A stretch of DNA of 39,355 bases from Escherichia phage JB01. The stretch is from the sequence record MW074885. One strand, 5' to 3'. Made by a program: the position numbers and the translations under genes. Of the stretch, positions 2,959 through 33,256 are shown piece after piece. Within the stretch, counting starts at the first letter, position 1. Every line of letters begins with the position of its first letter. A model generated the notes under the pieces. That model saw only the letters and a program-made list of their open reading frames with translations. It was not told the origin of the DNA and did no database searches.

Positions 2959-4741
<1,783 letters not shown>

Positions 4742-4744
<3 letters not shown>

Positions 4745-4764
4745 TACGACTCACTAAAGGAGAT
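4742..4764 (+). promoter_or_regulatory. phage RNAP promoter phi4.3
   Basis: taatacgactcactaaaggagat, class II. Confidence 0.85.
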
Positions 4765-4770
4765 AGCCAC

Positions 4771-5199
4771 ATGAGCACTGACTTAGAGAGACTTGAAAGA
4801 TTCTTGAAGATTGAGGGCGATTGCTGGCTGTTCACTGGTGGCAGGGCACATGCCTACGGAGTCTTCTGGATGGACGGTAAGAATCACAAGGCACATAGGG
4901 CGGCCTTCGAACTTTATAATGGGAGGAAACCTAATGGTGTTATATTACACTCTTGTGATAATCCTTTGTGCTGCAATCCCGCTCATCTATCTGAGGGAAC
5001 TCAGCTTGATAATATGGTGGACATGGTTAGAAAGGGACGCTCGTTAAAGGGTACGAAGAATCCCGCATGCAAGTTTACCGATGAGGATGTCAAGTTCATT
5101 CAGGAGTCTACCATGAAGGTCAAAGATTTAGCCACTCTATTCGGAGTGACGCGCCAAACAATAACCAAATGGAGGAAACATCATGTTCAAACTGATTAA
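4771..5199 (+). CDS. HNH homing endonuclease (HNH_3-type) with C-terminal HTH-like tail
   Basis: 142 aa; motifs GDCWLFTGG, AHRAAF, HSCDNPLCCNPAHL, EGTQ; sits between phi4.3 and gene 4.3. Confidence 0.8.
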   Translation: MSTDLERLERFLKIEGDCWLFTGGRAHAYGVFWMDGKNHKAHRAAFELYNGRKPNGVILHSCDNPLCCNPAHLSEGTQLDNMVDMVRKGRSLKGTKNPACKFTDEDVKFIQESTMKVKDLATLFGVTRQTITKWRKHHVQTD

Positions 5200-5395
5200 G
5201 AAGTTAGGCCAACTGCTGGTTCGTATGTACAACGTGGAAGCCAAGCGTCTGAACGATGAGGCTCGTAAAGAGGCCACACAGTCACGCGCTCTGGCGATTC
5301 GCTCCAACGAACTTGCTGACAGTGCATCAAATAAGGTTACAGAAGCTGCACGTGTAGCTAACCAAGCTCAACAGCTTTCCAAATTCTTTGAGTAA
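5183..5395 (+). CDS. 4.3: gp4.3 hypothetical protein
   Basis: 70 aa MFKLIKKLGQLLVRMYN..., as T7 gp4.3; start overlaps the HNH ORF end. Confidence 0.85.
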   Translation: MFKLIKKLGQLLVRMYNVEAKRLNDEARKEATQSRALAIRSNELADSASNKVTEAARVANQAQQLSKFFE

Positions 5396-5414
5396 TCAAA
5401 CAGGAGAAACCATT

Positions 5415-5684
5415 ATGTCTAAAGTAGCTGAAACTATCCGTCTATCCGATACCGCTGACCAGTGGAACCGTCGGGTTCACATCAACGTTCGTAACGGTAA
5501 GGCGACTATGGTTTACCGCTGGAAGGACTCTAAGTCCACTAAGAATCACACTCAGCGTATGACGTTGACGGACGAGCAAGCACTGCGTCTGGTCAATGCG
5601 CTTACCAAAGCTGCCGTGACCGCAATTCATGAAGCTGGTCGCGTGGATGAAGCTATGGCTATCCTCGACAAGATTGATAGCTAA
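5415..5684 (+). CDS. 4.5: gp4.5 hypothetical protein
   Basis: 89 aa from ATG at 5415 with caggagaaacc SD; ORF-track start at 5388 rejected. Confidence 0.85.
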   Translation: MSKVAETIRLSDTADQWNRRVHINVRNGKATMVYRWKDSKSTKNHTQRMTLTDEQALRLVNALTKAAVTAIHEAGRVDEAMAILDKIDS

Positions 5685-5685
5685 G

Positions 5686-5728
5686 AGTGGTATACTCAAG
5701 GTCGCCATAGTGGTGGCCTTCATGAATA
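5686..5728 (+). promoter_or_regulatory. RNase III-type processing hairpin (R4.7-like)
   Basis: tatactcaaggtcgcc...ggccttcatgaat shares the actcaagg...ggcctt flanks of the other processing sites. Confidence 0.5.
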
Positions 5729-5751
5729 CTATTCGACTCACTATAGGAGAT
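5729..5751 (+). promoter_or_regulatory. phage RNAP promoter phi4.7
   Basis: ctattcgactcactataggagat variant. Confidence 0.8.
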
Positions 5752-5757
5752 ATTATC

Positions 5758-6165
5758 ATGCGTGACCCTAAAGTTATCCAAGCAGAAATCGCTAAGTTGG
5801 AAGCTGAACTGGAGGACGTTAAGTACCATGAGGCTAAGACTCGCTCCGCTGTTCACATCTTGAAGAACTTAGGATGGACTTGGACAAGACAGACTGGATG
5901 GAAGAAACCAGAAGTTACCAAGCTGAGCCATAAGATGTTCGATAAGGACACTATGACCCACATCAAGGCTGGTGACTGGGTTAAGGTTGACATGGGAGTT
6001 GTTGGTGGGTATGGCTACGTCCGCTCAGTGAGTGGCAAATATGCTCAAGTGTCATACATCACAGGTGTTACTCCACGAGGGGCAATCGTCGCTGATAAGA
6101 CCAACATGATTCACACAGGTTTCTTGACAGTTGTCTCATATGAAGAGATTGTTAAGTCACGATAA
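5758..6165 (+). CDS. 4.7: gp4.7 hypothetical protein
   Basis: 135 aa from ATG at 5758 just after the promoter; ORF-track upstream extension rejected. Confidence 0.85.
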   Translation: MRDPKVIQAEIAKLEAELEDVKYHEAKTRSAVHILKNLGWTWTRQTGWKKPEVTKLSHKMFDKDTMTHIKAGDWVKVDMGVVGGYGYVRSVSGKYAQVSYITGVTPRGAIVADKTNMIHTGFLTVVSYEEIVKSR

Positions 6166-6183
6166 TCAATAGGAGAAATCAAT

Positions 6184-8298
6184 ATGATCGTTTCTGACAT
6201 CGAAGCTAACGCCCTCTTAGAGAGTGTCACTAAGTTCCACTGCGGGGTTATCTACGACTACTCCACCGATGAGTACGTAAGCTACCGTCCGAGTGACTTC
6301 GGTGCGTATCTGGATGCGCTGGAAGCCGAGGTTGCACGAGGCGGTCTTATTGTGTTCCACAACGGTCACAAGTATGACGTTCCCGCATTGACCAAACTTG
6401 CAAAGCTGCAATTGAACCGTGAGTTCCACATTCCTCGTGAGAACTGTATCGACACACTTGTGCTGTCACGCTTGATTCACTCCAACCTTAAGGACACCGA
6501 TATGGGTCTTCTGCGTTCCGGTAAGTTGCCTGGGAAACGCTTTGGGTCTCACGCTCTGGAGGCGTGGGGGTATCGCTTAGGCGAAATGAAGGGTGAATAC
6601 AAGGACGACTTTAAGCGTATGCTTGAAGAGCAGGGTGAAGAATACGTTGACGGAATGGAGTGGTGGAACTTCAACGAAGAGATGATGGACTATAACGTTC
6701 AGGACGTTGTGGTCACTAAGGCTCTCCTTGAGAAGTTACTCTCTGACAAACATTACTTCCCTCCTGAGATTGACTTCACGGACGTAGGATACACTACGTT
6801 CTGGTCAGAATCCCTTGAGGCCGTTGACGTTGAACATCGTGCTGCATGGCTACTCGCTAAGCAAGAGCGTAATGGATTCCCGTTTGACACGAAAGCAATC
6901 GAAGAGTTGTACGTAGAGTTAGCTGCCCGTCGCTCTGAGTTGCTCCGTAAATTGACCGAAACGTTCGGCTCGTGGTATCAACCTAAAGGTGGCACCGAAA
7001 TGTTCTGCCACCCACGAACAGGTAAGCCGCTGCCTAAATACCCTCGCATTAAGACACCTAAAGTTGGTGGTATCTTTAAGAAGCCTAAGAACAAGGCACA
7101 GCGAGAAGGCCGTGAGCCTTGCGAACTGGATACCCGCGAGTACGTTGCTGGTGCTCCGTATACTCCAGTAGAGCACGTAGTGTTTAACCCTTCGTCTCGT
7201 GACCACATCCAGAAGAAACTCCAAGAGGCTGGATGGGTCCCCACGAAGTTCACCGATAAGGGTGCTCCTGTGGTGGACGATGAGGTACTCGAAGGAGTAC
7301 GTGTAGATGACCCTGAGAAGCAAGCTGCTATCGACCTCATTAAAGAGTACCTGATGATTCAGAAGAGAATCGGACAGTCTGCTGAGGGAGACAAGGCATG
7401 GCTTCGTTACGTTGCTGAGGATGGTAAGATTCATGGTTCTGTTAATCCCAACGGCGCTGTTACTGGGCGCGCTACTCACGCTTTCCCTAACCTCGCACAG
7501 ATACCCGGTGTCCGTTCTCCTTATGGTGATAAGTGCCGCGCTGCTTTTGGCGCTGAACATCACCTAGACGGTATTACTGGTAAGCCTTGGGTTCAGGCAG
7601 GTATAGATGCATCCGGCCTTGAGTTGCGCTGCTTGGCCCACTTCATGGCTCGCTTTGACAACGGTGAGTACGCCCACGAGATTCTTAATGGTGACATCCA
7701 CACTAAGAACCAGATTGCTGCCGAATTGCCTACCCGTGACAACGCTAAGACGTTCATCTATGGGTTCCTTTATGGTGCTGGCGATGAGAAGATTGGACAG
7801 ATTGTTGGTGCTGGTAAAGAGCGCGGTAAGGAACTCAAGAAGAAATTCCTTGAGAACACCCCTGCGATTGCAGCACTCCGCGAGTCTATCCAACAGACAC
7901 TTGTCGAGTCCTCTCAGTGGGTAGCAGGTGAGCAACAAGTCAAGTGGAAACGCCGCTGGATTAAAGGTCTGGATGGTCGTAAGGTACATGTTCGTAGTCC
8001 TCACGCTGCATTGAATACCCTACTGCAATCTGCTGGTGCTCTTATCTGCAAACTGTGGATTATCAAGACCGAAGAGATGCTCGTAGAGAAAGGCTTGAAG
8101 CACGGCTGGGATGGGGACTTTGCGTACATGGCATGGGTACACGATGAAATCCAAGTGGGTTGTCGTACCGAAGAGATTGCTCAGGTGGTCATTGAGACCG
8201 CACAAGAAGCAATGCGCTGGGTTGGAGACCACTGGAACTTCCGGTGTCTGCTGGATACCGAAGGTAAGATGGGTCCTAATTGGGCCGTATGTCACTAA
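6184..8298 (+). CDS. 5: gp5 DNA polymerase (family A)
   Basis: 704 aa, same length as T7 gp5; N-terminal 3'-5' exonuclease motifs; uninterrupted. Confidence 0.97.
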
Positions 8299-8981: not shown

Positions 8982-9870
8982 CCTTAAACAATTCTACGAG
9001 TTACGTGAAGGCTGCAACGACAAAGGTATCCTTGTGATGGATGGTGACTGGCTGGTCTTCCAAGCGATGAGTGCCGCTGAGTTTGATGCCTCATGGGAGG
9101 AAGAGATTTGGCACCGCTGCTGTGACCACGCTAAGGCCCGTCAGATTCTTGAGGATTCCATCAAGTCCTATGAGACCCGCAAGAAGGCTTGGATAGGTGC
9201 TCCGATTGTCCTTGCGTTCACCGATAGCGTTAACTGGCGTAAAGAACTGGTTGACCCGAACTACAAGGCTAACCGTAAGGCAACCAAGAAACCTGTGGGT
9301 TACTTTGAGTTCCTTGAGGCTCTCTTTGAGCGCGAAGAGTTCTATTGCATCCGTGAGCCTATGCTTGAGGGTGATGACGTTATGGGAGTTATTGCCTCCA
9401 ATCCGTCTGCATTCGGTGCGCGTAAGGCTGTAATTATCTCGTGCGATAAGGACTTTAAGACCATCCCTAACTGTGACTTCCTGTGGTGCACCACTGGTAA
9501 CATCCTTACTCAGACAGAAGAGTCCGCTGACTGGTGGCACCTCTTCCAGACAATCAAGGGTGACATCACCGATGGTTACTCAGGGATTGCTGGGTGGGGA
9601 GATACTGCCGAGGAGTTCTTGAATAACCCGTTCATAACCGAGCCTAAAACGTCTGTGCTTAAGTCTGGCAAGAACAAAGGCCAAGAGGTTACTAAATGGG
9701 TTAAACGAGACCCTGAGCCTCATGAGACGCTTTGGGACTGCATTAAGTCCATTGGCGCTAAGGCTGGTATGACCGAAGAGGATATTATCAAGCAGGGCCA
9801 GATGGCTCGCATCCTTCGGTTCAACGAGTACAACTTTATTGACAAGGAGATTTACCTGTGGAGACCGTAG
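8968..9870 (+). CDS. 6: gp6 5'-3' exonuclease
   Basis: 300 aa, same length as T7 gp6. Confidence 0.95.
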   Translation: MALLDLKQFYELREGCNDKGILVMDGDWLVFQAMSAAEFDASWEEEIWHRCCDHAKARQILEDSIKSYETRKKAWIGAPIVLAFTDSVNWRKELVDPNYKANRKATKKPVGYFEFLEALFEREEFYCIREPMLEGDDVMGVIASNPSAFGARKAVIISCDKDFKTIPNCDFLWCTTGNILTQTEESADWWHLFQTIKGDITDGYSGIAGWGDTAEEFLNNPFITEPKTSVLKSGKNKGQEVTKWVKRDPEPHETLWDCIKSIGAKAGMTEEDIIKQGQMARILRFNEYNFIDKEIYLWRP

Positions 9871-9971
9871 CGTATATTGGCATTGGTATTTGTGTCCTAG
9901 GAATTGGCCTCATTGCGTGGGGCCTTTGGGACTTAGCCAGAATAATCAAGGCGTTACACGACACTAAGTGA
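9858..9971 (+). CDS. 6.3: gp6.3-like small hydrophobic protein
   Basis: GTG start overlapping the gene 6 end; 37 aa ETVAYIGIGICVLGIGLIAWGLW... Confidence 0.6.
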   Translation: METVAYIGIGICVLGIGLIAWGLWDLARIIKALHDTK

Positions 9972-10040
9972 TAAACTCAAGGTCCCTAAATTAATACGAC
10001 TCACTATAGGGAGATAGGGGCCTTTATGATTATTACTTTA
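9972..10040 (+). promoter_or_regulatory. RNase III-type hairpin spanning phi6.5 (R6.5-like)
   Basis: actcaaggtccc...ggggcctttatgat arms bracket the promoter. Confidence 0.45.
9992..10014 (+). promoter_or_regulatory. phage RNAP promoter phi6.5 (class III consensus)
   Basis: taatacgactcactatagggaga exact consensus. Confidence 0.9.
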
Positions 10041-10068
10041 AGATTTAACTCTAAGAGGAATCTTTATC

Positions 10069-10323
10069 ATGTTAACACCTATTAACCAATTACTTAAGAA
10101 CCCTAACGATATTCCAGATGTACCTCGTGCAACCGCTGAGTATCTACAGGTTCGATTCAACTATGCGTACCTCGAAGCGTCTGGTCATATAGGACTTATG
10201 CGTGCTAATGGTTGTAGTGAAGCTCACATATTGGGTTTCATTCAGGGCCTACAGTATGCCTCTAACGTCATTGACGAGATTGAGTTACGCAAGGAACAAC
10301 TAAGAGAAGATGGGGAGGATTGA
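10069..10323 (+). CDS. 6.5: gp6.5 hypothetical protein
   Basis: 84 aa; position and sequence as T7 gp6.5. Confidence 0.85.
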
Positions 10324-10997: not shown

Positions 10998-11300
10998 ATG
11001 GGTAAGAAAATTAAGAAGGCCGTGAAGAAAGTCACTAAGTCCGTTAAGAAAGTCGTTAAGGAAGTGACTCGTCCGGTTAAACAGATTGCTGGTGGTCTGG
11101 CTGGTGGTGCTGGTGAAGCACAGGTGGTGGAAGTACCACAAGCTGCCGCAACTCCTGCTGCACAGATTGTTGACGTACCTGAGAAAGAGGTTTCCACTGA
11201 GGACGAAGCACAGACCGAAAGCGGACGTAAGAAAGCTCGTGCTGGCGGTAAGAAGTCCTTGAGTGTGGCTCGTAGCTCCGGTGGCGGCATCAACATTTAA
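10998..11300 (+). CDS. 7.3: gp7.3 tail assembly/ejection protein
   Basis: 100 aa, Lys-rich N-terminus MGKKIKKAVKKVTKSVKK; gene 7.7 absent before gene 8. Confidence 0.88.
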   Translation: MGKKIKKAVKKVTKSVKKVVKEVTRPVKQIAGGLAGGAGEAQVVEVPQAAATPAAQIVDVPEKEVSTEDEAQTESGRKKARAGGKKSLSVARSSGGGINI

Positions 11301-11314
11301 ACAGGAGGTGACAC

Positions 11315-12925
11315 ATGGCTGAGAAGCGTACAGGTCTAGCCGAGGAAGGCGCAAAGTCGGTCTATGAGCGATTAAAGAACGACCGCGCTCCTTATGAGAC
11401 TCGTGCTCAAAACTGCGCTCAGTACACCATTCCGTCCCTCTTCCCTAAGGACTCCGATAACTCATCCACAGACTACACGACTCCGTGGCAAGCTGTGGGT
11501 GCTCGCGGTCTCAATAACTTGGCCTCTAAGCTCATGCTGGCTCTCTTCCCGATGCAAACGTGGATGAAACTGACCATCTCTGAGTATGAGGCTAAACAGT
11601 TACTGAATGACCCCGATGGACTCGCTAAGGTCGATGAGGGCCTCTCGATGGTAGAGCGTATCATCATGAACTACATTGAGTCTAACAGTTACCGAGTGAC
11701 TCTCTTTGAGGCTCTCAAGCAGTTAGTCGTAGCGGGTAACGTCCTGCTGTACCTACCGGAACCAGAAGGGTCAAACTATAATCCCATGAAGCTGTATCGA
11801 TTGTCTTCTTATGTGGTCCAACGAGACGCATTCGGCAACGTTCTGCAAATGGTGACTCGTGACCAGATAGCTTTTGGCGCTCTCCCTGAGGACATCCGTA
11901 AGGCTGTAGAAGGTCAAGGTGGTGAGAAGAAAGCCGATGAGACCATCGACGTGTACACTCACATCTATCTGGATGAGGACTCAGGCGAATACCTCCGGTA
12001 CGAAGAGGTCGAGGGTATGGAAGTTCAAGGCTCCGATGGGTCTTACCCCAAAGAGGCTTGCCCGTACATCCCGATTCGAATGGTTCGTCTGGATGGTGAA
12101 TCCTACGGTCGTTCGTACATTGAGGAATACTTAGGTGACTTACGGTCCCTTGAGAATCTCCAAGAGGCTATCGTCAAGATGTCCATGATTAGCTCTAAGG
12201 TTATCGGCTTAGTGAATCCTGCTGGCATCACCCAGCCACGCCGACTGACCAAAGCTCAGACTGGTGACTTCGTTACTGGTCGTCCAGAAGACATCTCGTT
12301 CCTCCAACTGGAGAAGCAAGCAGACTTTACTGTAGCTAAAGCCGTAAGTGACGCTATCGAGGCTCGCCTTTCGTTTGCCTTTATGTTGAACTCTGCGGTT
12401 CAGCGCACAGGTGAGCGTGTGACCGCCGAAGAGATTCGGTACGTTGCGTCAGAACTAGAAGATACTTTGGGTGGTGTCTACTCCATCCTTTCTCAAGAAT
12501 TACAATTGCCTCTGGTACGAGTGCTCTTGAAGCAACTACAAGCCACGCAACAGATTCCTGAGTTACCTAAGGAAGCCGTAGAGCCAACTATTAGCACAGG
12601 TCTGGAAGCAATCGGTCGTGGTCAAGACCTTGATAAGCTGGAGCGTTGTGTCGCTGCGTGGGCTGCACTGGCTCCTATGCGTGATGACCCTGACATCAAC
12701 CTTGCGATGATTAAGCTGCGAATTGCTAACGCTATCGGTATTGACACTTCTGGTATTCTACTCACCGAAGAACAGAAGCAACAGAAGATGGCCCAACAGT
12801 CTATGCAAATGGGTATGGATAATGGTGCTGCTGCGCTGGCTCAAGGTATGGCTGCACAAGCTACAGCTTCACCTGAGGCTATGGCTGCTGCCGCTGATTC
12901 CGTAGGTTTACAGCCGGGCATTTAA
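11315..12925 (+). CDS. 8: gp8 portal (head-tail connector) protein
   Basis: 536 aa, same length as the T7 portal. Confidence 0.97.
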   Translation: MAEKRTGLAEEGAKSVYERLKNDRAPYETRAQNCAQYTIPSLFPKDSDNSSTDYTTPWQAVGARGLNNLASKLMLALFPMQTWMKLTISEYEAKQLLNDPDGLAKVDEGLSMVERIIMNYIESNSYRVTLFEALKQLVVAGNVLLYLPEPEGSNYNPMKLYRLSSYVVQRDAFGNVLQMVTRDQIAFGALPEDIRKAVEGQGGEKKADETIDVYTHIYLDEDSGEYLRYEEVEGMEVQGSDGSYPKEACPYIPIRMVRLDGESYGRSYIEEYLGDLRSLENLQEAIVKMSMISSKVIGLVNPAGITQPRRLTKAQTGDFVTGRPEDISFLQLEKQADFTVAKAVSDAIEARLSFAFMLNSAVQRTGERVTAEEIRYVASELEDTLGGVYSILSQELQLPLVRVLLKQLQATQQIPELPKEAVEPTISTGLEAIGRGQDLDKLERCVAAWAALAPMRDDPDINLAMIKLRIANAIGIDTSGILLTEEQKQQKMAQQSMQMGMDNGAAALAQGMAAQATASPEAMAAAADSVGLQPGI

Positions 12926-15914: not shown

Positions 15915-18305
15915 ATGGCACTCATTAGCCAATCAATCAAGAACTTGAAGGGTGGTATCAGTCAACAGCCTGACATCCTTCGTTATCCCGACCAAGGGTC
16001 ACGCCAAGTTAACGGTTGGTCTTCGGAGACCGAGGGCCTCCAAAAGCGTCCACCTCTGGTTTTCCTTAAGACACTGGGAGGAAGTGGTGACTTAGGACAA
16101 GCACCTCTCATTCACCTGATAAACCGTGACGAGTACGAGAGGTACTACGCAGTGTTTACAGGAAGTACCATCCGAGTTTTCGATTTAGCTGGTAACGAGA
16201 AACAAGTGCGTTTCCCTACAGGGGCAGCATATGTACAGACAGCTAACCCACGGAATGACCTTAGGATGGTAACAGTTGCCGACTACACGTTTATCGTTAA
16301 CAGAAACGTAACCGTAACCGAGTCCACCGAAATTTCAACTGGTGGTAACTTTAGGGATAAAGGAGACGCGCTTGTTAACGTGCGAGGCGGTCAGTATGGA
16401 AGAACGTTGAAGGTGCTGATTAATGGTACAGTATATGCATCGTACACAATCCCTAACGGGTCCGCTCCAGAACACGTCAACAATACTGATGCTCAATGGC
16501 TGGCTAACGAGTTGGCTACTCAACTCAGGAACAACCTAGGACCACACGGGTGGACATTCAACGTTGGTCAAGGGTTCATTCACGTAATAGCTCCTGCCAA
16601 CGGTGAGGTAGCCAACATATCAACCGAGGATGGATACGCAGACCAGCTAATTAACCCTGTCACGCACTACGCTCAGTCGTTCTCTAAGTTGCCACCAAAC
16701 GCTCCAGATGGCTACATGGTTAAGATTGTGGGAGATGCCTCAAAGTCCGCTGACCAGTATTACGTTCAGTATGATGCCAGTCGTAAGGTATGGAAGGAAG
16801 TTGTTGGGTGGAACACCAAGCTGCACTACACTCATGCTACGATGCCTCACGCTCTCATTAGGGCCTCTGACGGTAACTTTGAGTTCAAGACCATCTCGTG
16901 GAACCCTAGGGTGTGCGGTGATGTTGATACTAACCCGTATCCTTCATTCGTAGGCTCTACGATTAATGATGTCTTCTTCTTCCGTAACCGTTTAGGATTC
17001 CTTAGCGGAGAGAACATCATATTGAGTCGTACTGCAAAATACTTCAACTTCTTCCCAGCGTCGGTTGCTAACCTAAGTGATGACGACCCTATAGACGTAG
17101 CTGTGAGTACCAACCGAATAGCAATCCTTAAGTACGCCGTTCCATTCTCAGAAGAGTTGCTCATCTGGTCCGATGAAGCACAATTCGTCCTGACTGCTTC
17201 TGGTACGCTTACTTCACGTTCCGTTGAGTTGAACCTAACGACCCAGTTTGATGTACAGGACCGAGCGAGACCTTATGGGATTGGGCGCAATGTCTACTTT
17301 GCTAGTCCGAGGTCCAGCTACACGTCCATCCACAGGTACTACGCTGTGCAGGATGTCAGTTCCGTTAAGAACTCTGAGGACATCACAGCACACGTTCCTA
17401 ACTACATCCCTAATGGTGTGTTTAGTATCTGCGGTAGCGGTACGGAAAACTTCTGTTCGGTACTATCTCACGGCGACCCTAGCAAAATCTTCATGTACAA
17501 ATTCCTGTACCTGAACGAAGAGTTAAGGCAACAGTCGTGGTCTCACTGGGACTTTGGTGAAAACGTACAGGTTCTAGCTTGTCAGAGTATCAACTCAGAT
17601 ATGTATGTGATTCTTCGTAATGAGTTCAATACGTTCCTAGCTAAAATATCTTTCACTAAGAACGCCATTGACTTACAAGGTGAACCTTATCGTGCCTTTA
17701 TGGACATGAAGATTCGCTACACGATTCCAAGCGGAACGTACAACGATGACACCTACGAAACTTCCATTCACATACCGACCATTTATGGTGCGAACTTCGG
17801 GAGGGGCAAAATCACCGTATTGGAGCCTGATGGTAAGATAACCGTATTTGAGCAACCAACTGCTGGATGGAATAGCGACCCTTGGCTGAGACTCAACGGT
17901 AACTTAGAGGGACGAACGGTATACATTGGGTTCAACATTAACTTCGTCTATGAGTTCTCTAAGTTTCTCATCAAGCAGACTGCCGACGACGGGTCTACCT
18001 CCACGGAAGACATTGGTCGCTTACAGTTACGCCGAGCGTGGGTTAACTATGAGGAGTCTGGTACGTTCGATATTTATGTTGAGAACCAATCGTCCAACTG
18101 GAAGTACACAATGGCTGGTGCTCGCTTAGGCTCTAACACTCTGAGGGCTGGGCGATTGAACTTAGGTACTGGACAATACCGATTCCCTGTGGTTGGTAAC
18201 GCCAAGTTCAATACCGTGTCCATCTTGTCTGATGAGACTACCCCGCTGAACATCATTGGGTGTGGCTGGGAAGGTAACTACTTACGGAGAAGTTCCGGTA
18301 TTTAA
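15915..18305 (+). CDS. 12: gp12 tail tubular protein B
   Basis: 796 aa; T7 gp12-like throughout. Confidence 0.95.
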   Translation: MALISQSIKNLKGGISQQPDILRYPDQGSRQVNGWSSETEGLQKRPPLVFLKTLGGSGDLGQAPLIHLINRDEYERYYAVFTGSTIRVFDLAGNEKQVRFPTGAAYVQTANPRNDLRMVTVADYTFIVNRNVTVTESTEISTGGNFRDKGDALVNVRGGQYGRTLKVLINGTVYASYTIPNGSAPEHVNNTDAQWLANELATQLRNNLGPHGWTFNVGQGFIHVIAPANGEVANISTEDGYADQLINPVTHYAQSFSKLPPNAPDGYMVKIVGDASKSADQYYVQYDASRKVWKEVVGWNTKLHYTHATMPHALIRASDGNFEFKTISWNPRVCGDVDTNPYPSFVGSTINDVFFFRNRLGFLSGENIILSRTAKYFNFFPASVANLSDDDPIDVAVSTNRIAILKYAVPFSEELLIWSDEAQFVLTASGTLTSRSVELNLTTQFDVQDRARPYGIGRNVYFASPRSSYTSIHRYYAVQDVSSVKNSEDITAHVPNYIPNGVFSICGSGTENFCSVLSHGDPSKIFMYKFLYLNEELRQQSWSHWDFGENVQVLACQSINSDMYVILRNEFNTFLAKISFTKNAIDLQGEPYRAFMDMKIRYTIPSGTYNDDTYETSIHIPTIYGANFGRGKITVLEPDGKITVFEQPTAGWNSDPWLRLNGNLEGRTVYIGFNINFVYEFSKFLIKQTADDGSTSTEDIGRLQLRRAWVNYEESGTFDIYVENQSSNWKYTMAGARLGSNTLRAGRLNLGTGQYRFPVVGNAKFNTVSILSDETTPLNIIGCGWEGNYLRRSSGI

Positions 18306-19403: not shown

Positions 19404-21647
19404 ATGAGTAAAATTGAATCTGCCCTTCAAGCGGCACAACCGGGACTCTCTCGGTTACGTAGTGGCGCTGGTGGTATGGGCTATCGTGCGGCAACCACTC
19501 AGGCTGAACAGCCACGGTCAAGCCTATTGGACACCATTGGTCGGTTCGCTAAGGCTGGTGCTGATTTGTATGCCGCTAAGGAACAGAGAGCACGAGACCT
19601 AGCTGACGAACGTTCTAACGAGATTATCCGTAAGCTGACTCCTGAGCAACGCCGAGAGGCTCTCAACAACGGGACCCTTCTGTATCAGGATGACCCATAC
19701 GCTATGGAAGCACTCCGAGTCAAGACTGGTCGCAACGCTGCGTACCTTGTGGACGATGACGTTATGCAGAAGGTCAAAGAGGGTGTCTTCCGTACTCGTG
19801 AGGAGATGGAACAGTATCGCCATAGTCGTCTTCAAGAGGGCGCTAAGGCATACGCTGAGCAGTTCGGTATTGACCCTGAGGACGTTGACTATCAGCGTGG
19901 TTTCAATGGGGACATTACCGAGCGTAACATCTCGCTGTATGGCGCACACGATAACTTCTTGAGCCAGCAAGCTCAGAAGGGTGCCATCATGAACAGCCGA
20001 GTGGAACTCAACGGTGTCCTTCAAGACCCTGATATGCTGCGTCGTCCAGACTCTGCTGACTTCTTTGAGAAGTACATCGACAACGGTCTGGTTACTGGGG
20101 CAATCCCATCGGACGCTCAAGCCACACAGCTTATAAGCCAAGCGTTCAGTGACGCTTCTAGCCGTGCTGGTGGTGCTGACTTCCTGATGCGAGTCGGTGA
20201 CAAGAAGGTAACACTTAACGGAGCCACTACGACTTACCGAGAGTTGATGGGTGAGGAACAGTGGAATGCTCTAATGGTGACAGCACAACGCTCTCAGTTT
20301 GAGAATGACGCTAAGCTGAACGAGCAGTATCGCTTGAAGATTAACTCTGCGATGAACCAAGAGGACCCTCGTACTGCGTGGGAGATGCTTCAAGGTATCA
20401 AGGCTGAACTCGATAAGATTCAACCTGATGAGCAGATGACACCACAACGTGAGTGGCTAATCTCTGCACAGGAGCAAGTTCAGAACCAGATGAACGCATG
20501 GACGAAAGCTCAGGCCAAGGATCTGGATGATTCCATGAAGTCTATGAACAAACTTGAAGTAATCGACAAGCAGTTCCAGAAGCGAATCAACGGTGAGTGG
20601 GTCTCAACGGACTTTAAGGATATGCCAGTCAACGAGAACACTGGTGAGTTCAAGCATAGCGATATGGTTAACTACGCCAATAAGAAGCTCGCTGAGATTG
20701 ACCGAATGGACATCCAAGATAGTGCCAAGGACATGATGAAGTTAAAATACCTTCAAGCGGACTCTAAGGACGGTGCCTTCCGTACAGCAATCGGGACTAT
20801 GGTGACTGACGCTAGTCAAGAGTGGTCTGCCGCTGTGATTAACGGTAAGATACCAGAACGGACCCCAGCTTTGGATGCTCTGCGTAGAATCCGTAATGCC
20901 GACCCCCAGTTGATTGCTGCGCTATACCCAGACCAAGCTGAGCTATTCCTGACGATGGACATGATGGACAAGCAGGGTATTGACCCTCAGGTTATTCTTG
21001 ATGCCGACAGACTGACTGTTAAGCGGTCCAAAGAGCAACGCTTTGAGGACGATAAAGCATTCGAGTCTGCATTGAATGCATCTAAGGCTCCTGAGATTGC
21101 CCGTATGCCAGCGTCACTTCGCGAATCTGCACGTAAGATTTATGACTCAGTTAAGTATCGCTCAGGGAACGAAAGCATGGCTATGGAGCAGATGACCAAG
21201 TTCCTTCAGGAATCTACCTACACGTTCACTGGTGATGATGTTGATGGAGATACCATTGGTGTGATTCCGAAGAACATGATGCAAGTCAACTCTGACCCGA
21301 AATCATGGGAGCAAGGTCGGGATATTCTGGAGGAAGCACGTAAGGGAATCATTGCGAGCAACCAGTGGATAACCAACAAGCAACTGACCATGTATTCTCA
21401 AGGTGATTCCATTTACCTCATGGATACCACTGGTCAAGTCCGCGTCCGTTATGATAAAGAGTTACTCTCGAAGGTCTGGAGTGAGAACCAGAAGAAACTC
21501 GAAGAGAAGGCTCGCGAGAAGGCTCTGGCTGATGCTAACAAGCGAGCACCTATAGTTGCCGCTACCAAGGCCCGTGAAGCTGGTGCTAAACGAGTCCGAG
21601 AGAAACGTAAACAGACTCCGAAGTTCATCTATGGACGCAAGGAGTAA
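19404..21647 (+). CDS. 15: gp15 internal virion protein B
   Basis: 747 aa as T7 gp15. Confidence 0.95.
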   Translation: MSKIESALQAAQPGLSRLRSGAGGMGYRAATTQAEQPRSSLLDTIGRFAKAGADLYAAKEQRARDLADERSNEIIRKLTPEQRREALNNGTLLYQDDPYAMEALRVKTGRNAAYLVDDDVMQKVKEGVFRTREEMEQYRHSRLQEGAKAYAEQFGIDPEDVDYQRGFNGDITERNISLYGAHDNFLSQQAQKGAIMNSRVELNGVLQDPDMLRRPDSADFFEKYIDNGLVTGAIPSDAQATQLISQAFSDASSRAGGADFLMRVGDKKVTLNGATTTYRELMGEEQWNALMVTAQRSQFENDAKLNEQYRLKINSAMNQEDPRTAWEMLQGIKAELDKIQPDEQMTPQREWLISAQEQVQNQMNAWTKAQAKDLDDSMKSMNKLEVIDKQFQKRINGEWVSTDFKDMPVNENTGEFKHSDMVNYANKKLAEIDRMDIQDSAKDMMKLKYLQADSKDGAFRTAIGTMVTDASQEWSAAVINGKIPERTPALDALRRIRNADPQLIAALYPDQAELFLTMDMMDKQGIDPQVILDADRLTVKRSKEQRFEDDKAFESALNASKAPEIARMPASLRESARKIYDSVKYRSGNESMAMEQMTKFLQESTYTFTGDDVDGDTIGVIPKNMMQVNSDPKSWEQGRDILEEARKGIIASNQWITNKQLTMYSQGDSIYLMDTTGQVRVRYDKELLSKVWSENQKKLEEKAREKALADANKRAPIVAATKAREAGAKRVREKRKQTPKFIYGRKE

Positions 21648-25702: not shown

Positions 25703-27367
25703 ATGGCTAACGTAATTAAAACCGTTTTGACTTACCAGTTAGATGGCTCCAATCGTGATTTTAATATCCCGTTTGAGTATCTAGCCCGTAAGTTCGTAGT
25801 GGTAACTCTTATTGGTGTAGACCGCAAGGTCCTTACGATTAATACAGACTACCGTTTTGCTACGCGTACTACCATCTCACTAACCAAGGCTTGGGGGCCA
25901 GCGGATGGCTACACTACCATCGAGTTACGTCGAGTAACCTCCACGACCGACCGATTGGTTGACTTTACGGACGGCTCAATCCTCCGTGCGTATGACCTTA
26001 ACGTAGCTCAGATTCAAACGATGCACGTAGCGGAAGAGGCCCGTGACCTCACTGCGGATACTATCGGTGTCAATAATGATGGTCACTTGGATGCTCGTGG
26101 TCGTCGAATTGTGAACCTAGCGAACGCCGTTGATGACCGTGACGCTGTTCCGTTTGGTCAACTTAAGACCATGAACCAGAACTCGTGGCAAGCACGTAAT
26201 GAGGCCCTACAGTTCCGTAATGAGGCTGAGACTTTCAGAAATCAAGCGGAGGGCTTTAAGAACGAGTCTGGTACCAACGCTGCTAATACGAAGCAGTGGC
26301 GTGATGAGACCCAAGGGTTCCGTGATGGAGCCGAGCAGTTAAAGAATACTGCTGGTCAATACGCTACGTCTGCTGGGAACTCTGCTACTGCTGCACACCA
26401 ATCTGAGGTAAACGCTGAGAACTCCGCTACAGCCTCTGCCAACTCAGCACATTTAGCGGAACAACAGGCAGACCGAGCGGAACGTGAAGCAGACAAGCTG
26501 GGAAACTGGAACGCCCTTGCTGGTACTGTAGAGAGCGTTCAGGGTGATAGTGTATTCTGGAAAGGAGGAGGCTATTGGGTTGGAGGTCCCGCATACAGAC
26601 TCCCAACGAACCACGCATTTAGGTTCCGTATGGGTATTTGGGAAGAAGGCGACTTCCTTAAGTCTGACTTCGCTATGGACCGACCGGACGGTATAGGGTT
26701 CATAGGGTATGCAGCGGACAAGACTGGACAGCATCGTCACCAGATTCGACTTAATCAGTTAACAATAGCTGGCGGTGTGGTAGAGTCAGATGCTGATGGT
26801 CTCATAGCTCACGCTTTCGCTGACCAGTACACCACTAAAGCTCCTTTCTTCCAACAGATTCATGTACAATCTACAAGCTCATATCACCCAATAATAAAGC
26901 AACGAACTTACCAATCTGGACGGTGGGCAGGATGCTGGTCTATCGGTACACTGCTGACTGGAGCGCATCCGTCATTCCACATACATATGAAGGACGAAGG
27001 GATAAGTGATAAACTTTGGACGTTCAATACCAATGGAGACTTCCGCGCCCCTGGGGAGATTTGGGCCGATGGCGGACGTGTGGCTGTACGGAATGGCTCT
27101 TTTGACCCTGAGGGTAGAGTTTGGGGTACTGCGTATGATACCGGATACCTAGATGACTGGATTCGGAGACACTGGCCCGGCGATGTTTATTGGGGCCCTC
27201 AACGCTGGGTGCAAAAGTGGGGAGGTTATGCAGACATAGTTGCTGGTGCTGGGGAAGCCTGCTCTGGTGTAACCGCTGATGGTAGCGGTAACGTTGCGGG
27301 TGCATTCTTCCGAGCGCTTTGGCTTGGATATCACAACGGTACTAAACGATTAGTTGCTTCCCAATAA
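25703..27367 (+). CDS. 17: gp17 tail fiber protein (T7-like N-terminal half, divergent C-terminal receptor-binding region)
   Basis: 554 aa; first ~270 residues T7-like; remainder Gly/Trp-rich and unlike the T7 tip as I recall it. Confidence 0.93.
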   Translation: MANVIKTVLTYQLDGSNRDFNIPFEYLARKFVVVTLIGVDRKVLTINTDYRFATRTTISLTKAWGPADGYTTIELRRVTSTTDRLVDFTDGSILRAYDLNVAQIQTMHVAEEARDLTADTIGVNNDGHLDARGRRIVNLANAVDDRDAVPFGQLKTMNQNSWQARNEALQFRNEAETFRNQAEGFKNESGTNAANTKQWRDETQGFRDGAEQLKNTAGQYATSAGNSATAAHQSEVNAENSATASANSAHLAEQQADRAEREADKLGNWNALAGTVESVQGDSVFWKGGGYWVGGPAYRLPTNHAFRFRMGIWEEGDFLKSDFAMDRPDGIGFIGYAADKTGQHRHQIRLNQLTIAGGVVESDADGLIAHAFADQYTTKAPFFQQIHVQSTSSYHPIIKQRTYQSGRWAGCWSIGTLLTGAHPSFHIHMKDEGISDKLWTFNTNGDFRAPGEIWADGGRVAVRNGSFDPEGRVWGTAYDTGYLDDWIRRHWPGDVYWGPQRWVQKWGGYADIVAGAGEACSGVTADGSGNVAGAFFRALWLGYHNGTKRLVASQ

Positions 27368-27376
27368 GGAGACATT

Positions 27377-27760
27377 ATGCGTAAATTTACTAACTGGACA
27401 TACGAAGTAACTACCGCTTACGGCGGTATCGCCACTTATGACGTGACTGCATCTTGTGGGACCGATTGGTATGAACTCATGGTTGAACTTGAGGACCGAC
27501 CTGAGAGATGGGTAGTCGGTATAGATAAGAACGGATTCATCTCATGGTTCTCCGATGGGACTGTTAACGGCACTTATGCGCCACCTGAGGGCGGTCTGGT
27601 GATTGTCACCGATGAGTTCGACCCTGAGTGGCAACGTGTTAAACTTTGGAACGGGGAGTCCTTCGAGGATATCCCTGAGCCACCTAAACGTACACCTGAG
27701 GAAATCCAAGCAGACCTTGAGGCTCTGATGGTTGAACTTCGTGAGCTTAGGGGGAAATAA
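27377..27760 (+). CDS. hypothetical protein between tail fiber and holin (candidate fiber assembly/accessory protein)
   Basis: 127-aa ORF with strong SD aaggaga 4 nt upstream; acidic; no T7 counterpart at this locus. Confidence 0.7.
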   Translation: MRKFTNWTYEVTTAYGGIATYDVTASCGTDWYELMVELEDRPERWVVGIDKNGFISWFSDGTVNGTYAPPEGGLVIVTDEFDPEWQRVKLWNGESFEDIPEPPKRTPEEIQADLEALMVELRELRGK

Positions 27761-27774
27761 TGGAGGTAAACTAA

Positions 27775-27978
27775 ATGTTGTCTTTAGATTTCAACAACGA
27801 AATCGTAAAGGCGGCTCCGATTGTAGGGACGGGTGTGGCTGATGGTGCAGCCCGTCTCTTCTTTGGATTGTCGCTAAACGAATGGTTCTATGTTGCTGCT
27901 ATCGCCTACACAGTAGTTCAGATTGGTGCTAAGGTAGTCGATAAAGTAATTGATTGGAAGAAAGCAAATAAGGAGTAG
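27775..27978 (+). CDS. 17.5: gp17.5 holin
   Basis: 67 aa MLSLDFNNEIVKAAPIVGTGVADGAARLFFGLSL... with hydrophobic core and charged C-terminus. Confidence 0.9.
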   Translation: MLSLDFNNEIVKAAPIVGTGVADGAARLFFGLSLNEWFYVAAIAYTVVQIGAKVVDKVIDWKKANKE

Positions 27979-28799: not shown

Positions 28800-30560
28800 G
28801 TGTCTACTCAAGCCAATCGTAATGCGCTCGTAGTGGCGCAACTGAAAGGAGACTTCGTGGCGTTCCTGTTCGTCTTATGGAAGGCGTTAAACCTTCCGGT
28901 GCCAACTAAGTGTCAGATTGACATGGCTAAGGTGCTGGCGAATGGAGACAACAAGAAGTTCATCCTACAGGCTTTCCGTGGTATCGGTAAGTCGTTCATC
29001 ACATGTGCGTTCGTTGTGTGGTCCTTATGGAGAGACCCTCAGTTGAAGATACTTATCGTATCAGCCTCTAAGGAACGTGCAGACGCTAACTCCATCTTCA
29101 TTAAGAACATCATTGACCTGCTGCCATTCCTCGCTGAGCTAAAGCCAAGACCCGGACAGCGTGACTCTGTAATCAGCTTTGACGTTGGCCCAGCTAAGCC
29201 TGACCACTCTCCTAGTGTGAAATCAGTAGGTATCACTGGTCAGTTAACTGGTAGCCGTGCTGACATTATCATTGCGGATGACGTTGAGATTCCGTCTAAC
29301 AGTGCGACTATGGGTGCCCGTGAGAAGCTATGGACTCTCGTTCAGGAGTTCGCTGCGTTACTTAAACCGCTGCCTTCCTCTCGTGTTATCTACCTTGGAA
29401 CACCTCAGACCGAGATGACTCTCTATAAGGAACTTGAGGATAACCGTGGGTACACCACTATCATCTGGCCCGCTCTGTACCCAAGGACACGCGAAGAGAA
29501 CCTCTATTACTCACAACGTCTTGCTCCTATGTTACGTGCTGAGTACGATGAGAACCCTGAGGCACTCGCTGGGACTCCTACAGACCCAGTGCGCTTTGAC
29601 CGTGATGACCTCCGTGAACGTGAGTTGGAATACGGTAAGGCTGGCTTTACGTTACAGTTCATGCTTAACCCGAACCTGAGTGATGCCGAGAAGTACCCTC
29701 TGAGGCTCCGTGACGCTATCGTAGCGGCCTTAGACTTAGAGAAGGCACCAATGCATTACCAGTGGCTTCCGAACCGTCAGAACATCATTGAGGACCTTCC
29801 TAACGTGGGCCTTAAGGGTGATGACCTGCATACGTATCATGATTGCTCCAACAACTCTGGTCAGTATCAACAGAAGATTCTGGTCATTGACCCTAGTGGT
29901 CGCGGTAAGGACGAAACAGGTTACTCTGTGCTGTACACCCTGAACGGTTACATCTACCTAATGGAAGCTGGAGGTTTCCGTGATGGTTACTCTGATAAGA
30001 CCCTTGAGTTGCTCGCTAAGAAAGCGAAGCAATGGGGAGTCCAGACGGTTGTCTACGAGAGTAACTTCGGTGACGGTATGTTTGGTAAGGTGTTCAGTCC
30101 TATCCTTCTTAAACACCACAATTGCGCTATGGAAGAGATTCGTGCTCGTGGTATGAAGGAGATGCGTATTTGTGATACCCTTGAGCCAGTCATGCAGACT
30201 CACCGCCTTGTCATTCGTGATGAGGTCATTAGGGCAGACTACCAGTCCGCTCGTGATATAGACGGTAAGCATGACGTTAAGTACTCACTGTTCTACCAGA
30301 TGACACGTATCACTCGTGAGAAAGGTGCTCTGGCTCATGATGACCGATTGGATGCCCTTGCGTTAGGCATTGAGTATCTCCGTGAGTCCATGCAGTTGGA
30401 TTCCGTTAAGGTCGAAGGTGAAGTGCTTGCTGACTTCCTTGAGGAGCACATGATGCGTCCTACGGTTGCTGCTACGCATATCATTGAGATGTCTGTAGGA
30501 GGAGTTGATGTGTACTCTGAGGACGATGAGGGTTACGGTACGTCTTTCATTGAGTGGTGA
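28800..30560 (+). CDS. 19: gp19 terminase large subunit
   Basis: 586 aa, GTG start after aaggagg SD; same length as T7 gp19. Confidence 0.97.
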
Positions 30561-30597
30561 TTTACGAGGCCAAGGAAGGCCAATTTAAGGAGGTATT

Positions 30598-31041
30598 ATG
30601 ATAAGCAAGAAGAAGTATGTGATTGATAAGGAGACTGGCTGCTGGAACTTTAAGGGATGCAGGACGAAGACTGGATATGGTCGCATTCGTGTAAACGGAG
30701 TCCATTGGATGGCCCACAGGTATTCCCTGAGTTGTCATCTAGGCAGACCGATAGCTGACGGAATGGTTGTGATGCACCTGTGTGATAATCCTTCATGTGT
30801 TAACCCTGAGCACCTTAAGGAAGGGACTCAGAAGGAGAACATAGAAGACTGCATCTCAAAAGGTCGCGCAACTAAGGCCACAGGTAAACGTGATGCGTCT
30901 AAGAGAGACCCTAGCGAGGAACGTAAGGCTATAGTGGTTCGTAGATACCATAAAGGCTGGACTGCAACGTCCATAGCGAGATACCATAAGCTCTCTGTGG
31001 CGTGGGTCAAGAGGGTCATTGAGGAGTACCTAAGTGATTGA
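30598..31041 (+). CDS. HNH homing endonuclease (HNH_3-type) with C-terminal HTH-like tail
   Basis: 147 aa; motifs GCWNFKGC, GYGRIRVNG, AHRYS, HLCDNPSCVNPEHL, EGTQ; between gene 19 and phiOR. Confidence 0.8.
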   Translation: MISKKKYVIDKETGCWNFKGCRTKTGYGRIRVNGVHWMAHRYSLSCHLGRPIADGMVVMHLCDNPSCVNPEHLKEGTQKENIEDCISKGRATKATGKRDASKRDPSEERKAIVVRRYHKGWTATSIARYHKLSVAWVKRVIEEYLSD

Positions 31042-31092
31042 TATTTGAAATTAGTGATACAGGTATAAGTATATGATTACAGACCATTATTC

Positions 31093-31115
31093 TAATTCGA
31101 CTCACTATAGGGAGA
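31093..31115 (+). promoter_or_regulatory. phage RNAP promoter phiOR-like
   Basis: taattcgactcactatagggaga, one mismatch to consensus, upstream of gene 19.5. Confidence 0.75.
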
Positions 31116-31205
31116 AGCCTACCTAAAGATTACTATTAGACTTAAAGTGTCCTATAAGGGTAGGTTGTTATTATATGAATACAACCATCATAAAGGAGGA
31201 GACTC

Positions 31206-31355
31206 ATGTTCCGCTTATTGTTGAACCTGCTGCGGCATAGAGTCACCTACCGCTTTCTTATGGTACTTTGTGCTGCCCTTGGGTACGCATCTCTTAATGG
31301 AGACCTCAGTTCACTGGAGTCTACCGTTTGCTCTATACTCACTTGTAGCGATTAG
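31206..31355 (+). CDS. 19.5: gp19.5 small membrane-type protein
   Basis: 49 aa MFRLLLNLLRHRVTYRFLMVLCAALGYASL... with aaggagga SD; below the ORF-track length cutoff. Confidence 0.8.
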   Translation: MFRLLLNLLRHRVTYRFLMVLCAALGYASLNGDLSSLESTVCSILTCSD

Positions 31356-31596
31356 GGTCTTACTGACAGACTGATGGCTCACCGAGGGATTCAGCGGTAT
31401 GATTGCATCACACCACTTCATCCCTATAGAGTCAAGTCCTAAGGTATACCCCATAAAGAGCCTCTAATGGTCTATCCGTAAGGTCTATACCTAAAGATAG
31501 GCCATCTTATCAGTATCACCTAAAGAGGGTCTTAGAGAGGGCCTAGGGAGTTCCTAGAGGGTCCTTTAAAATATACCATAAAAATCTGAGTGACTA

Positions 31597-31766
31597 TCTC
31601 ACAGTGTACGGACCCAAAGTTCCCCCATAGGGGTACCTAAAGCCCAGCCAATCACCTAAAGTTACCTTTCGGTTGACCTTGAGGGTCCCTAAGGGTTGGG
31701 GTTTACCTTTGAGTGGGACTTTGGGTTTACCTTTGAGTGTTACCTTGAGTGTCTCTATGTGTCCCT
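31597..31766. repeat. direct terminal repeat region (single collapsed copy at the genome-end junction)
   Basis: begins tctcacagtgtacgga and ends gtgtccct, matching the T7 terminal-repeat boundaries as I recall them; contains internal direct repeat gggtttacctttgagtg x2. Confidence 0.5.
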
Positions 31767-31779
31767 ATCTGTTACAGTC

Positions 31780-31842
31780 TCCTAAAGTCACCTCCTAAAG
31801 TCACCTCCTAAAGTCACCTCCTAAAGTCACCTCCTAACGTCC
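31780..31842. repeat. 13-bp tandem array tcctaaagtcacc x4 plus a degenerate fifth copy
   Basis: perfect copies at 31780, 31793, 31806, 31819; part of the cctaaag-rich left-end repeat region. Confidence 0.85.
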
Positions 31843-32020
31843 TTCCTAAAGCCTACACCTAAAGACACCATCAAGTCAATGCCTATCTTAAAGTATAGAC
31901 CTAAAGACCATTCCTAAAGACCAGACCTAAAGACACTACATAAAGACCATACCTAAAGACGCCTTGTTGTTAGCCATAAAGGGATAATCTTCAATCATTG
32001 TCTTTAACCATTGTCTTTAT

Positions 32021-32043
32021 TAATACGACTCACTATAGAGAGA
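32021..32043 (+). promoter_or_regulatory. phage RNAP promoter phiOL-like
   Basis: taatacgactcactatagagaga preceded by the duplicated cattgtcttta motif. Confidence 0.75.
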
Positions 32044-32097
32044 CTACTTAAAGAGTCCTTAAAGATGGATTAATTTAAAGATTTATTAAAAAGAGTA

Positions 32098-32126
32098 TTG
32101 ACTTTAAGTCTAACCTATAGGATACT
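32098..32126 (+). promoter_or_regulatory. host sigma70 early promoter A1
   Basis: -35 TTGACT (32098-32103), 17-nt spacer, -10 GATACT (32121-32126). Confidence 0.8.
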
Positions 32127-32223
32127 TTGAGCCATCGAGAGGGACACGGTGAATAGCCATCCTAATCGACACCGGGTCAAACGGTTAAGTAGACAGCCTG
32201 ATAAGTCGTATGAAAAACAGGTA

Positions 32224-32253
32224 TTGACAACATGAAGTAACATGAAGTAAGAT
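32224..32253 (+). promoter_or_regulatory. host sigma70 early promoter A2
   Basis: -35 TTGACA (32224-32229), 18-nt spacer, -10 TAAGAT (32248-32253). Confidence 0.75.
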
Positions 32254-32334
32254 ACACAACGTAGCGTCAACCACTGACACGGTGTCTTCTAGGTGACTTA
32301 AGCGCACCACGGCACATAAAGTGAAACAAAACGG

Positions 32335-32363
32335 TTGACAACATGAAGTAAACACGGTACGAT
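32335..32363 (+). promoter_or_regulatory. host sigma70 early promoter A3
   Basis: -35 TTGACA (32335-32340), 17-nt spacer, -10 TACGAT (32358-32363). Confidence 0.75.
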
Positions 32364-32469
32364 GTACCACATGAAACGACAGTGAGTCACCACACTGAAA
32401 GGTGATGCGGTCTAACGAAACCTGACCAAAGACGCTCTTTAACAATCTGGTAAATAGCTCTTGAGTGCA

Positions 32470-32520
32470 TAGATAGTGGATAACTCAAGGGTATCGCAAG
32501 GTGCCCTTTATGATATTCAC
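32470..32520 (+). promoter_or_regulatory. RNase III-type processing site, copy 1 (R0.3-like)
   Basis: gataactcaagggtatcgcaaggtgccctttatgatattcac; core at 32483-32508 repeated at 32837-32862. Confidence 0.5.
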
Positions 32521-32545
32521 TTAACTACTAAAGGAATCACACACA

Positions 32546-32830
32546 ATGCGCTTAAGTAAAGAGACAGCAATAGCTATGCGTCAAGCAATCAAATCCAGAG
32601 CAGCTCACAACGTGGGAGGTCTTGGGGATGTTGTACGGACGTATAAAGCTAAAGGTCTAACATTCCGCCGCTTTATGTGGGACTGTTTCCACGCTGTAGG
32701 CTTTAACGAGACAACCCGAATAATCGCTGAGCATAACACGGTGACAGTGATTGGAGGGCATATAACAGATGTGAACGATGCACACATTGAGACAATGCTC
32801 AAGGTTGCACTTAAAGACTTGAAATATTAG
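32546..32830 (+). CDS. hypothetical early protein upstream of ocr (no T7 counterpart)
   Basis: 94-aa ORF, ATG at 32546; first gene after A1-A3; flanked by duplicated processing-site element; no family recognised. Confidence 0.7.
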   Translation: MRLSKETAIAMRQAIKSRAAHNVGGLGDVVRTYKAKGLTFRRFMWDCFHAVGFNETTRIIAEHNTVTVIGGHITDVNDAHIETMLKVALKDLKY

Positions 32831-32876
32831 TGATAAACTCAAGGGTATCGCAAGGTGCCCTTCATGATTATCATTG
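32826..32876 (+). promoter_or_regulatory. RNase III-type processing site, copy 2 (R0.3-like)
   Basis: gtgataaactcaagggtatcgcaaggtgcccttcatgattatcat; near-identical to copy 1. Confidence 0.5.
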
Positions 32877-33254: not shown

Positions 33255-33256
33255 TC

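Follow-up and report, generated by a model that had tools for sequence, protein, structure and literature searches.

The analysed DNA, hereafter the window, is the complete 39,355-nt stretch of Escherichia phage JB01 (accession no. MW074885). It represents a T7-like phage (Teseptimavirus); over 25 kb, its identity to Escherichia phage N30 and to Serratia phage UFV01 is approximately 94%, and in most blocks it matches T7 at 92–95%. An ORF encoding a predicted HNH endonuclease is located between promoter phi4.3, downstream of the primase/helicase gene 4, and gene 4.3. The following features were distinguished in this region (window coordinates):

2974–4677, + strand: gene 4, essential primase/helicase, 567 aa (ORF list, T7 annotation and gene contexts of homologues)
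4380–4741, + strand: left flank, mosaic and unusually divergent, comprising the last ~300 nt of gene 4 and a 64-nt spacer with a gene 4.2-like tail
4742–4764, + strand: T7-type promoter phi4.3, TAATACGACTCACTAAAGGAGAT, with +1 at 4759 (sequence, T7 annotation and junction comparison)
4764–5182, no strand: inserted cassette as compared with the empty site, 419–420 nt in place of 6–9 nt (junction comparison)
4771–5199, + strand: HNH endonuclease ORF with an ATG start, 142 aa
4888–5019, + strand: HNH_3 / His-Me finger core, aa 40–83
5080–5175, + strand: predicted C-terminal three-helix HTH DNA-binding module, aa 104–135
5171–5175, + strand: GGAGG, replacement Shine-Dalgarno sequence for gene 4.3, located in the 3′-terminal part of the HNH ORF and kept in all occupied sites
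5183–5395, + strand: gene 4.3, 70 aa (MFKLIKK...), the first 17 nt of which overlap the HNH ORF

Sequence inspection identified phi4.3 as a perfect 23-bp match to the T7-type promoter. The ATG of the HNH ORF lies 6 nt past promoter position +6; a first-pass annotation of this DNA had given the distance as 7 nt, which was right in placing the ORF directly after the promoter and off by one at most in the size of the gap. In the T7 record, phi4.3 (+1 at 13341) is followed directly by gene 4.3 (at 13352), as that annotation had stated. The GGAGA at promoter positions +2 to +5 constitutes the Shine-Dalgarno sequence of the HNH ORF, and in T7 the same element serves 4.3. The HNH ORF is translated via a “captured” ribosome site and, judged by position, is transcribed from phi4.3 as a class II (DNA-metabolism) gene. 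The stop codon (5197–5199) is located 17 nt within gene 4.3, whose sole Shine-Dalgarno sequence is the GGAGG contained in the HNH ORF. The proposals that the ORF overlaps the start of 4.3, shares its promoter and supplies its ribosome site were thus borne out. Since the cassette carries a substitute ribosome site for 4.3, downstream expression is kept.

Two further observations concern the DNA upstream of the ORF. An overlapping ORF resembling gene 4.2 (4496–4744, + strand, 82 aa) starts with GTG, extends to the promoter and has a Cys-rich tail unlike that of T7 gp4.2; the window shares the 64-nt spacer encoding this tail with phages vB_Yep_15 and Salmonella phage C2. The phi4.3 promoters of N30, Bas102, LNA7 and the metagenomic contig L064 read TAATTAGACTCACTAAAGGAG, with TA replacing CG at −12/−11, and those of the window and AH67C600_Q5 are of the T7 type (TAATACGACTCAC).

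The first-pass annotation had described an HNH_3-type protein with an HTH-like tail. The exact motifs that it listed (GDCWLFTGG, AHRAAF, HSCDNPLCCNPAHL and EGTQ) are present in the ORF, and Pfam analysis revealed a match of aa 40–83 to HNH_3 (PF13392; 46.3 bits against a cut-off of 24.8, E value 3.3e-12), spanning positions 2–46 of the 46-position profile. Matches to a number of HTH families (aa 108–138) and to the I-PpoI zinc-loop family PF05551 were below the Pfam cut-off. Among the PHROG families, endonuclease/HNH groups were matched with E values of 6e-29 to 1e-5, the endonuclease families at 6e-29 and 6e-24.

Residue conservation was examined in an alignment of the ORF with 50 database homologues. 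Residues C18, Y29, G30, H60, C62, D63, C67, H72, G76, N81 and R90 are invariant in the 51 sequences. Neither H60 nor N81 varies in this set or in the 10 orthologues, and both groups also conserve N69, H72 and D63. From these patterns, and with roles assigned by analogy, H60 is the putative general base and N81 a putative metal ligand; C18 (upstream of the HNH_3 core), C62, C67 and H72 may form a Cys3-His zinc site. An AlphaFold (AF2) model built from the homologue alignment (pLDDT 94, confident over both domains) contains an N-terminal beta-sheet, a beta-beta-alpha core (strands 57–60 and 73–76, helix 78–88) and a three-helix C-terminal module. The predicted model thus displays the beta-beta-alpha-metal fold that is expected of HNH_3 proteins. 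By every feature of the family that can be checked in silico the ORF is an HNH_3 member, with metal-dependent DNA cleavage as its predicted activity.

The top Foldseek match of the model was I-HmuI (weak, probability 0.75). A search of solved structures with the single sequence returned only a spurious Spire match and a marginal HNH match, and a profile search returned HTH proteins and I-PpoI at E values of 0.18–0.36; these sequence searches gave no residue-by-residue catalytic mapping. The predicted fold resembles I-HmuI of SPO1 (PDB 1u3e), an HNH nicking endonuclease, which differs in being intron-encoded, 174 aa long and devoid of the Cys/His zinc site (16–17% identity, modest structural scores). 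It also resembles the His-Cys box homing endonuclease I-PpoI, although the latter, a eukaryotic enzyme encoded in an intron, is an obligate dimer, cuts both strands and lacks the HTH tail.

Many free-standing homing endonuclease genes (HEGs) degenerate after fixation, and the ORF might accordingly be a decaying remnant: a dead nuclease that is without function or survives only as a small DNA-binding HTH protein. However, 10 of 10 orthologues are full length with H60, N81 and the Cys/His ligands unchanged, pairwise dN/dS values among orthologues are 0.08–0.26, and the model is of high confidence over both domains. An inactive remnant is therefore very improbable, and a decayed pseudogene was rejected on the same full-length orthologues, invariant active-site residues and low dN/dS. 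An inactive HNH motif, which the first-pass annotation had named as evidence against its reading, was not encountered; the motif is intact and conserved in the alignment. The HNH ORF is thus intact, its active site is conserved and it evolves under purifying selection; the observation is far beyond chance, because near-identical intact orthologues occur in other phages. Another candidate, a terminase-associated HNH protein (a packaging helper of cos phages), was rejected: the gene sits in the DNA-replication cluster (genes 4–4.3), and the terminal repeats are of the T7 type.

Analysis of the distribution of the ORF revealed that it is covered by only 7 of the 269 phage records that match window positions 4000–6200. 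These records correspond to five Escherichia phages (N30, C5, AH67C600_Q5, MeretOppenheim_Bas102 and vB_EcoP_LNA7), which carry the gene (89–99% aa identity) at the same position and with the same promoter/Shine-Dalgarno layout as the window. The gene is already known, being annotated as “HNH endonuclease” or “endonuclease” in N30, C5, AH67C600_Q5 and Bas102; the LNA7 record has no annotation. Copies at 60% identity or more are encoded in only 10 of 50,697 phage records. A scan of IMG/VR found close copies only in N30, C5 and Kvp1 and no further occupied sites; the other matches were at most 50% identical over substantial length, with the exception of a 48-residue fragment (L030) of 73% identity. 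The literature search found no paper on an insertion between phi4.3 and gene 4.3.

Alignment of the junction, as proposed in the first-pass annotation, defined the empty site. Gene 4.3 directly follows the phi4.3 region in 11 HNH-less phages. In ten of them (T7, 13a, UFV01, CQ615, JeanTinguely, 64795_ec1, Bas103, NC-A, Yep_15 and C2) the junction is GGAGA-CAC(A/C)CC-ATG, i.e. GGAGA-CACNCC-ATG; in the eleventh, Vi06, the promoter has diverged. The two states of the site may be written as follows:

empty (T7, 13a, UFV01, CQ615, JeanTinguely, 64795_ec1, Bas103 and NC-A): ...AAAGGAGA-CAC(A/C)(C/T)C-ATGTTCAAACTG
occupied: ...AAAGGAG(A/G/C)-TAGCCAC-ATGAGC...[HNH]...GGAGGAAACATC-ATGTTCAAACTG

Phages vB_Yep_15 (Yersinia) and C2 (Salmonella) contain the window's own 64-nt spacer (with two mismatches) and promoter, followed by the empty junction. 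Compared with the window, they represent an exact before/after pair. The comparison shows that the cassette is optional (present or absent) and that its empty site can be precisely defined. Sporadic presence and a precise empty site within collinear flanks, both expected of a HEG, were thus observed, in agreement with the clean intergenic insertion proposed earlier. T7 and most relatives lack the ORF; its presence in all close relatives including T7 had been named beforehand as the finding that would speak against an insertion.

Patchiness of this kind could also result from genome streamlining, the HNH gene being ancestral and repeatedly deleted rather than gained by homing. T7-group phages easily delete non-essential genes, many of the matching T7 records being deletion variants of 36.9–38.5 kb, and the empty site bears no scar that would separate loss from gain. 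Repeated loss would nevertheless require independent deletions in at least 10 lineages to produce the same GGAGA-CACNCC-ATG junction, and the gene is rare (5 phages among hundreds). It also accords poorly with a near-identical cassette shared by phages whose left flanks differ by ~20%, and with related Berlinvirus copies at a different exact position (both described below). We therefore regard this explanation as improbable.

A further property expected of a HEG, movement of the cassette separately from its flanks, was supported by the comparison of the window with AH67C600_Q5. The cassettes of these phages are 98–100% identical, whereas the left 300 nt are only 77–84% identical; the right flank is 89–96% identical. 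The spacer is 64 nt long and of the Yep_15/C2 type in the window, as against 18 nt in AH67C600_Q5 and the other carriers, from which the window also differs in the gene 4 tail. The sequence breakpoint between the two phages appears to lie at or near the 23-bp promoter. The same cassette in different flank backgrounds indicates that it has moved between backgrounds.

More distant relatives (70–78% identical) were found in Kvp1 and pO103, of the genus Berlinvirus, and in metagenomic T7-like contigs (L062–L068, four contig families). They are always located immediately after gene 4, and two exact positions are used, one following the promoter and the other across the stop codon of gene 4. In several of these relatives the ORF overlaps that stop codon and lies upstream of the next promoter. 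Berlinvirus is thus a second genus with homologues at the gene 4 junction, at a different exact position. Since the location is always after gene 4 and the exact positions are two, the lineage is dedicated to the gene 4/4.3 junction and not to one insertion point. Dedication to a junction rather than to an exact point is typical of free-standing HEGs.

The DNA upstream of the cassette is unusually divergent. The last ~300 nt of gene 4 are 77–83% identical to T7, compared with a genome median of 95%; the left-flank bins rank 18–29 from the bottom of 351 (lowest 5–8%). The first 100 nt of the right flank (gene 4.3) are 99% identical to T7. Other bins of low identity to T7 abut the gene 2.8 and 3.8 indel sites. 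The window tracts 2001–2301 and 3001–3101, which adjoin these sites, are among the lowest in identity to T7 (68–74%) and mirror the divergent tract to the left of the HNH gene at the 4.3 site. Phage nuclease genes have been reported to sit near essential genes, at boundaries of genetic exchange (PMC10448857), and the low-identity left flank fits this published pattern of phage HEGs.

Gene 4 3′-end alleles were considered as target or immunity marks. In a first comparison of seven HNH-carrying phages with seven T7-proximal HNH-less phages, 18–21 alignment columns within the last ~380 nt of gene 4 were perfectly associated with the HNH gene, and none downstream. These columns included helicase motif 4, a KGK to KGR change and the acidic tail. 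The candidate was rejected, as no such column was left (0) after the addition of four HNH-less phages (Yep_15, C2, NC-A and Vi06) selected for their likeness to the flank of the window: Yep_15 and C2 share the tail, NC-A the motif-4 tract and Vi06 both. At the gene 4 3′ end, the comparison of HNH-carrying and HNH-less phages thus left no polymorphism that could be named as a target or immunity mark, nor a clear tract of co-conversion. HNH-less phages also have the divergent left flank, which may therefore represent ordinary mosaicism. By analogy only, the most likely target area would be the gene 4 3′ end together with the region of phi4.3.

Comparison of the window with T7 as a whole revealed a complete replacement of HNH genes. 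Each of the four HNH genes of T7 (2.8, 3.8, 5.3 and 7.7) is cleanly absent from the window, where the corresponding junctions lie at about 1995/2016, 2954/2989, 8299/8360 and 11309/11315; T7 positions 9861–10277, 11214–11585, 16469–16833 and 19844–20239 have no match. A second HNH_3-type ORF (30598–31041, + strand, 147 aa) with an HTH-like tail is located directly downstream of gene 19, encoding the terminase large subunit (28800–30560). It is 34–45% identical to T7 gp2.8/gp7.7, lies within a region (30565–31183) that has no T7 counterpart, and probably represents a further free-standing HEG, inserted at another site. The HNH content of T7 (2.8, 3.8, 5.3 and 7.7) has thus been fully swapped for that of the window (the 4.3 site and the site after gene 19), which illustrates both HEG turnover and the association of HEGs with tracts of low identity.

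Other differences from T7 and its relatives were noted in the course of this comparison. Gene 5 of the window (6184–8298) is uninterrupted and is directly followed by a gp5.5-like ORF; in Bas102, JeanTinguely, Bas103 and 13a, the annotation assembles this DNA polymerase gene from two pieces, suggestive of an intron. A region of about 1.3 kb (26506–27780) without a nucleotide match in T7 replaces T7 35427–36349, the distal part of tail fibre gene 17; a host-range module has probably been swapped here. Other short segments that T7 does not match (820–1011, 32527–32835 and 33248–33838) are located in the early and class II regions, and the T7 genes around 0.4–0.7 and 1.4–1.6 are also partly unmatched. 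The right end of T7 (39366–39937) corresponds to window 31184–31766 and its left end (1–907) to 31597–32526, with an overlap of about 170 nt. As the T7 ends overlap within window 31184–32526, the assembly is circularly permuted and its terminal repeat is collapsed; the physical ends of the genome lie in this interval.

The HNH gene is a paralogue of T7 genes 2.8 and 7.7. Like the products of these genes, the encoded protein belongs to HNH_3 and is of similar size (about 130–140 aa, 44% identity), and all three genes are free-standing between essential DNA-metabolism or morphogenesis genes and optional in the T7 group. The sites differ: 2.8 lies between 2.5 and 3, 7.7 between 7.3 and 8, and the window gene between phi4.3 and 4.3. 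GenBank notes describe gp2.8 and gp7.7 as homing-endonuclease-like. The literature search found no published target site for gp2.8, gp7.7 or the HNH protein of the window, and we know of no demonstration of cleavage, target site or gene conversion for gp2.8, the closest paralogue. MobE of T4 and the gene 5.3-type endonuclease of T3/PhiI are likewise free-standing HNH proteins encoded between essential genes and beside essential replication genes. In their case cleavage has been mapped experimentally and homing demonstrated, whereas for the window gene homing is supported by genome comparison; the genes and targets are also different (nrdA/nrdB and gene 5).

A recent preprint reports that phage HNH homing endonucleases, including the catalytically dead gp3.8 of T7, blunt the GAPS4 defence, and describes the competition of a T7 mutant lacking three homing endonucleases (derived from a gene 2.8 deletion) against the wild type (bioRxiv 10.1101/2025.09.07.674715). 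The HNH gene might similarly be kept mainly for a benefit to the phage, either as an anti-defence protein that protects DNA ends or breaks against a host system able to sense breaks, or in interference competition, through the cutting of co-infecting relatives. The reported effect on GAPS4, the 44% identity of the window ORF to gp2.8, purifying selection, which is compatible with a selected function, and early class II expression from phi4.3, as deduced from position, are all in line with such a role. No feature of the sequence speaks specifically for it, however; gp3.8, the protein tested in the preprint, is a different and much more distant HNH protein, and the sporadic spread of the gene is the pattern of a selfish cassette and not of a broadly useful gene. 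Maintenance mainly for phage benefit is thus unlikely, and such a role can coexist with homing.

Taken together, the HNH gene is probably a free-standing HEG in the gene 4/4.3 intergenic region, belonging to the HNH_3 / His-Me finger type. Homing is well supported by the comparison of phage genomes, with cleavage and gene conversion as its presumed steps. When a cell is infected by both the carrier and an HNH-less relative, the monomeric enzyme would bind the naive genome through its N-terminal beta-sheet and C-terminal HTH module, somewhere in or around the gene 4 3′ end or the region of phi4.3. It would then nick or cut the HNH-less allele. Since the enzyme, like I-HmuI, has a single HNH active site, nicking is more likely than cutting, and replication would turn the nick into a break, as it does with I-HmuI. 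T7-type recombination would repair the break from the HNH-carrying genome, and the cassette would be copied in together with flanks of variable length. Homing of this kind would explain (i) the patchy distribution, (ii) the identical cassette in different flanks and (iii) the mosaic left flank.

More tentatively, and only as a rather doubtful extension of the homing model, this HNH lineage may specialise, in at least two T7-like genera, on the 3′ part of the gene for the replicative helicase. Repeated cutting and repair could then account for the mosaic and fast-diverging C-terminus of gp4, including its polymerase-docking acidic tail, and/or the protein may shield DNA breaks from host defence, as has been reported for other HNH proteins of T7.

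The cassette is an ordinary selfish insertion of the same kind as T7 2.8/7.7, T4 mobE and the T3-group gene 5.3 endonuclease. Beyond correct annotation, the finding is of little import, adding one more optional selfish nuclease cassette to the T7 group. Its modest value lies in providing a clean natural test case, in which an occupied site, an empty site with the same flank (vB_Yep_15 and C2) and T7 are available for an enzyme of the gp2.8/gp7.7 type, whose activity is predicted.
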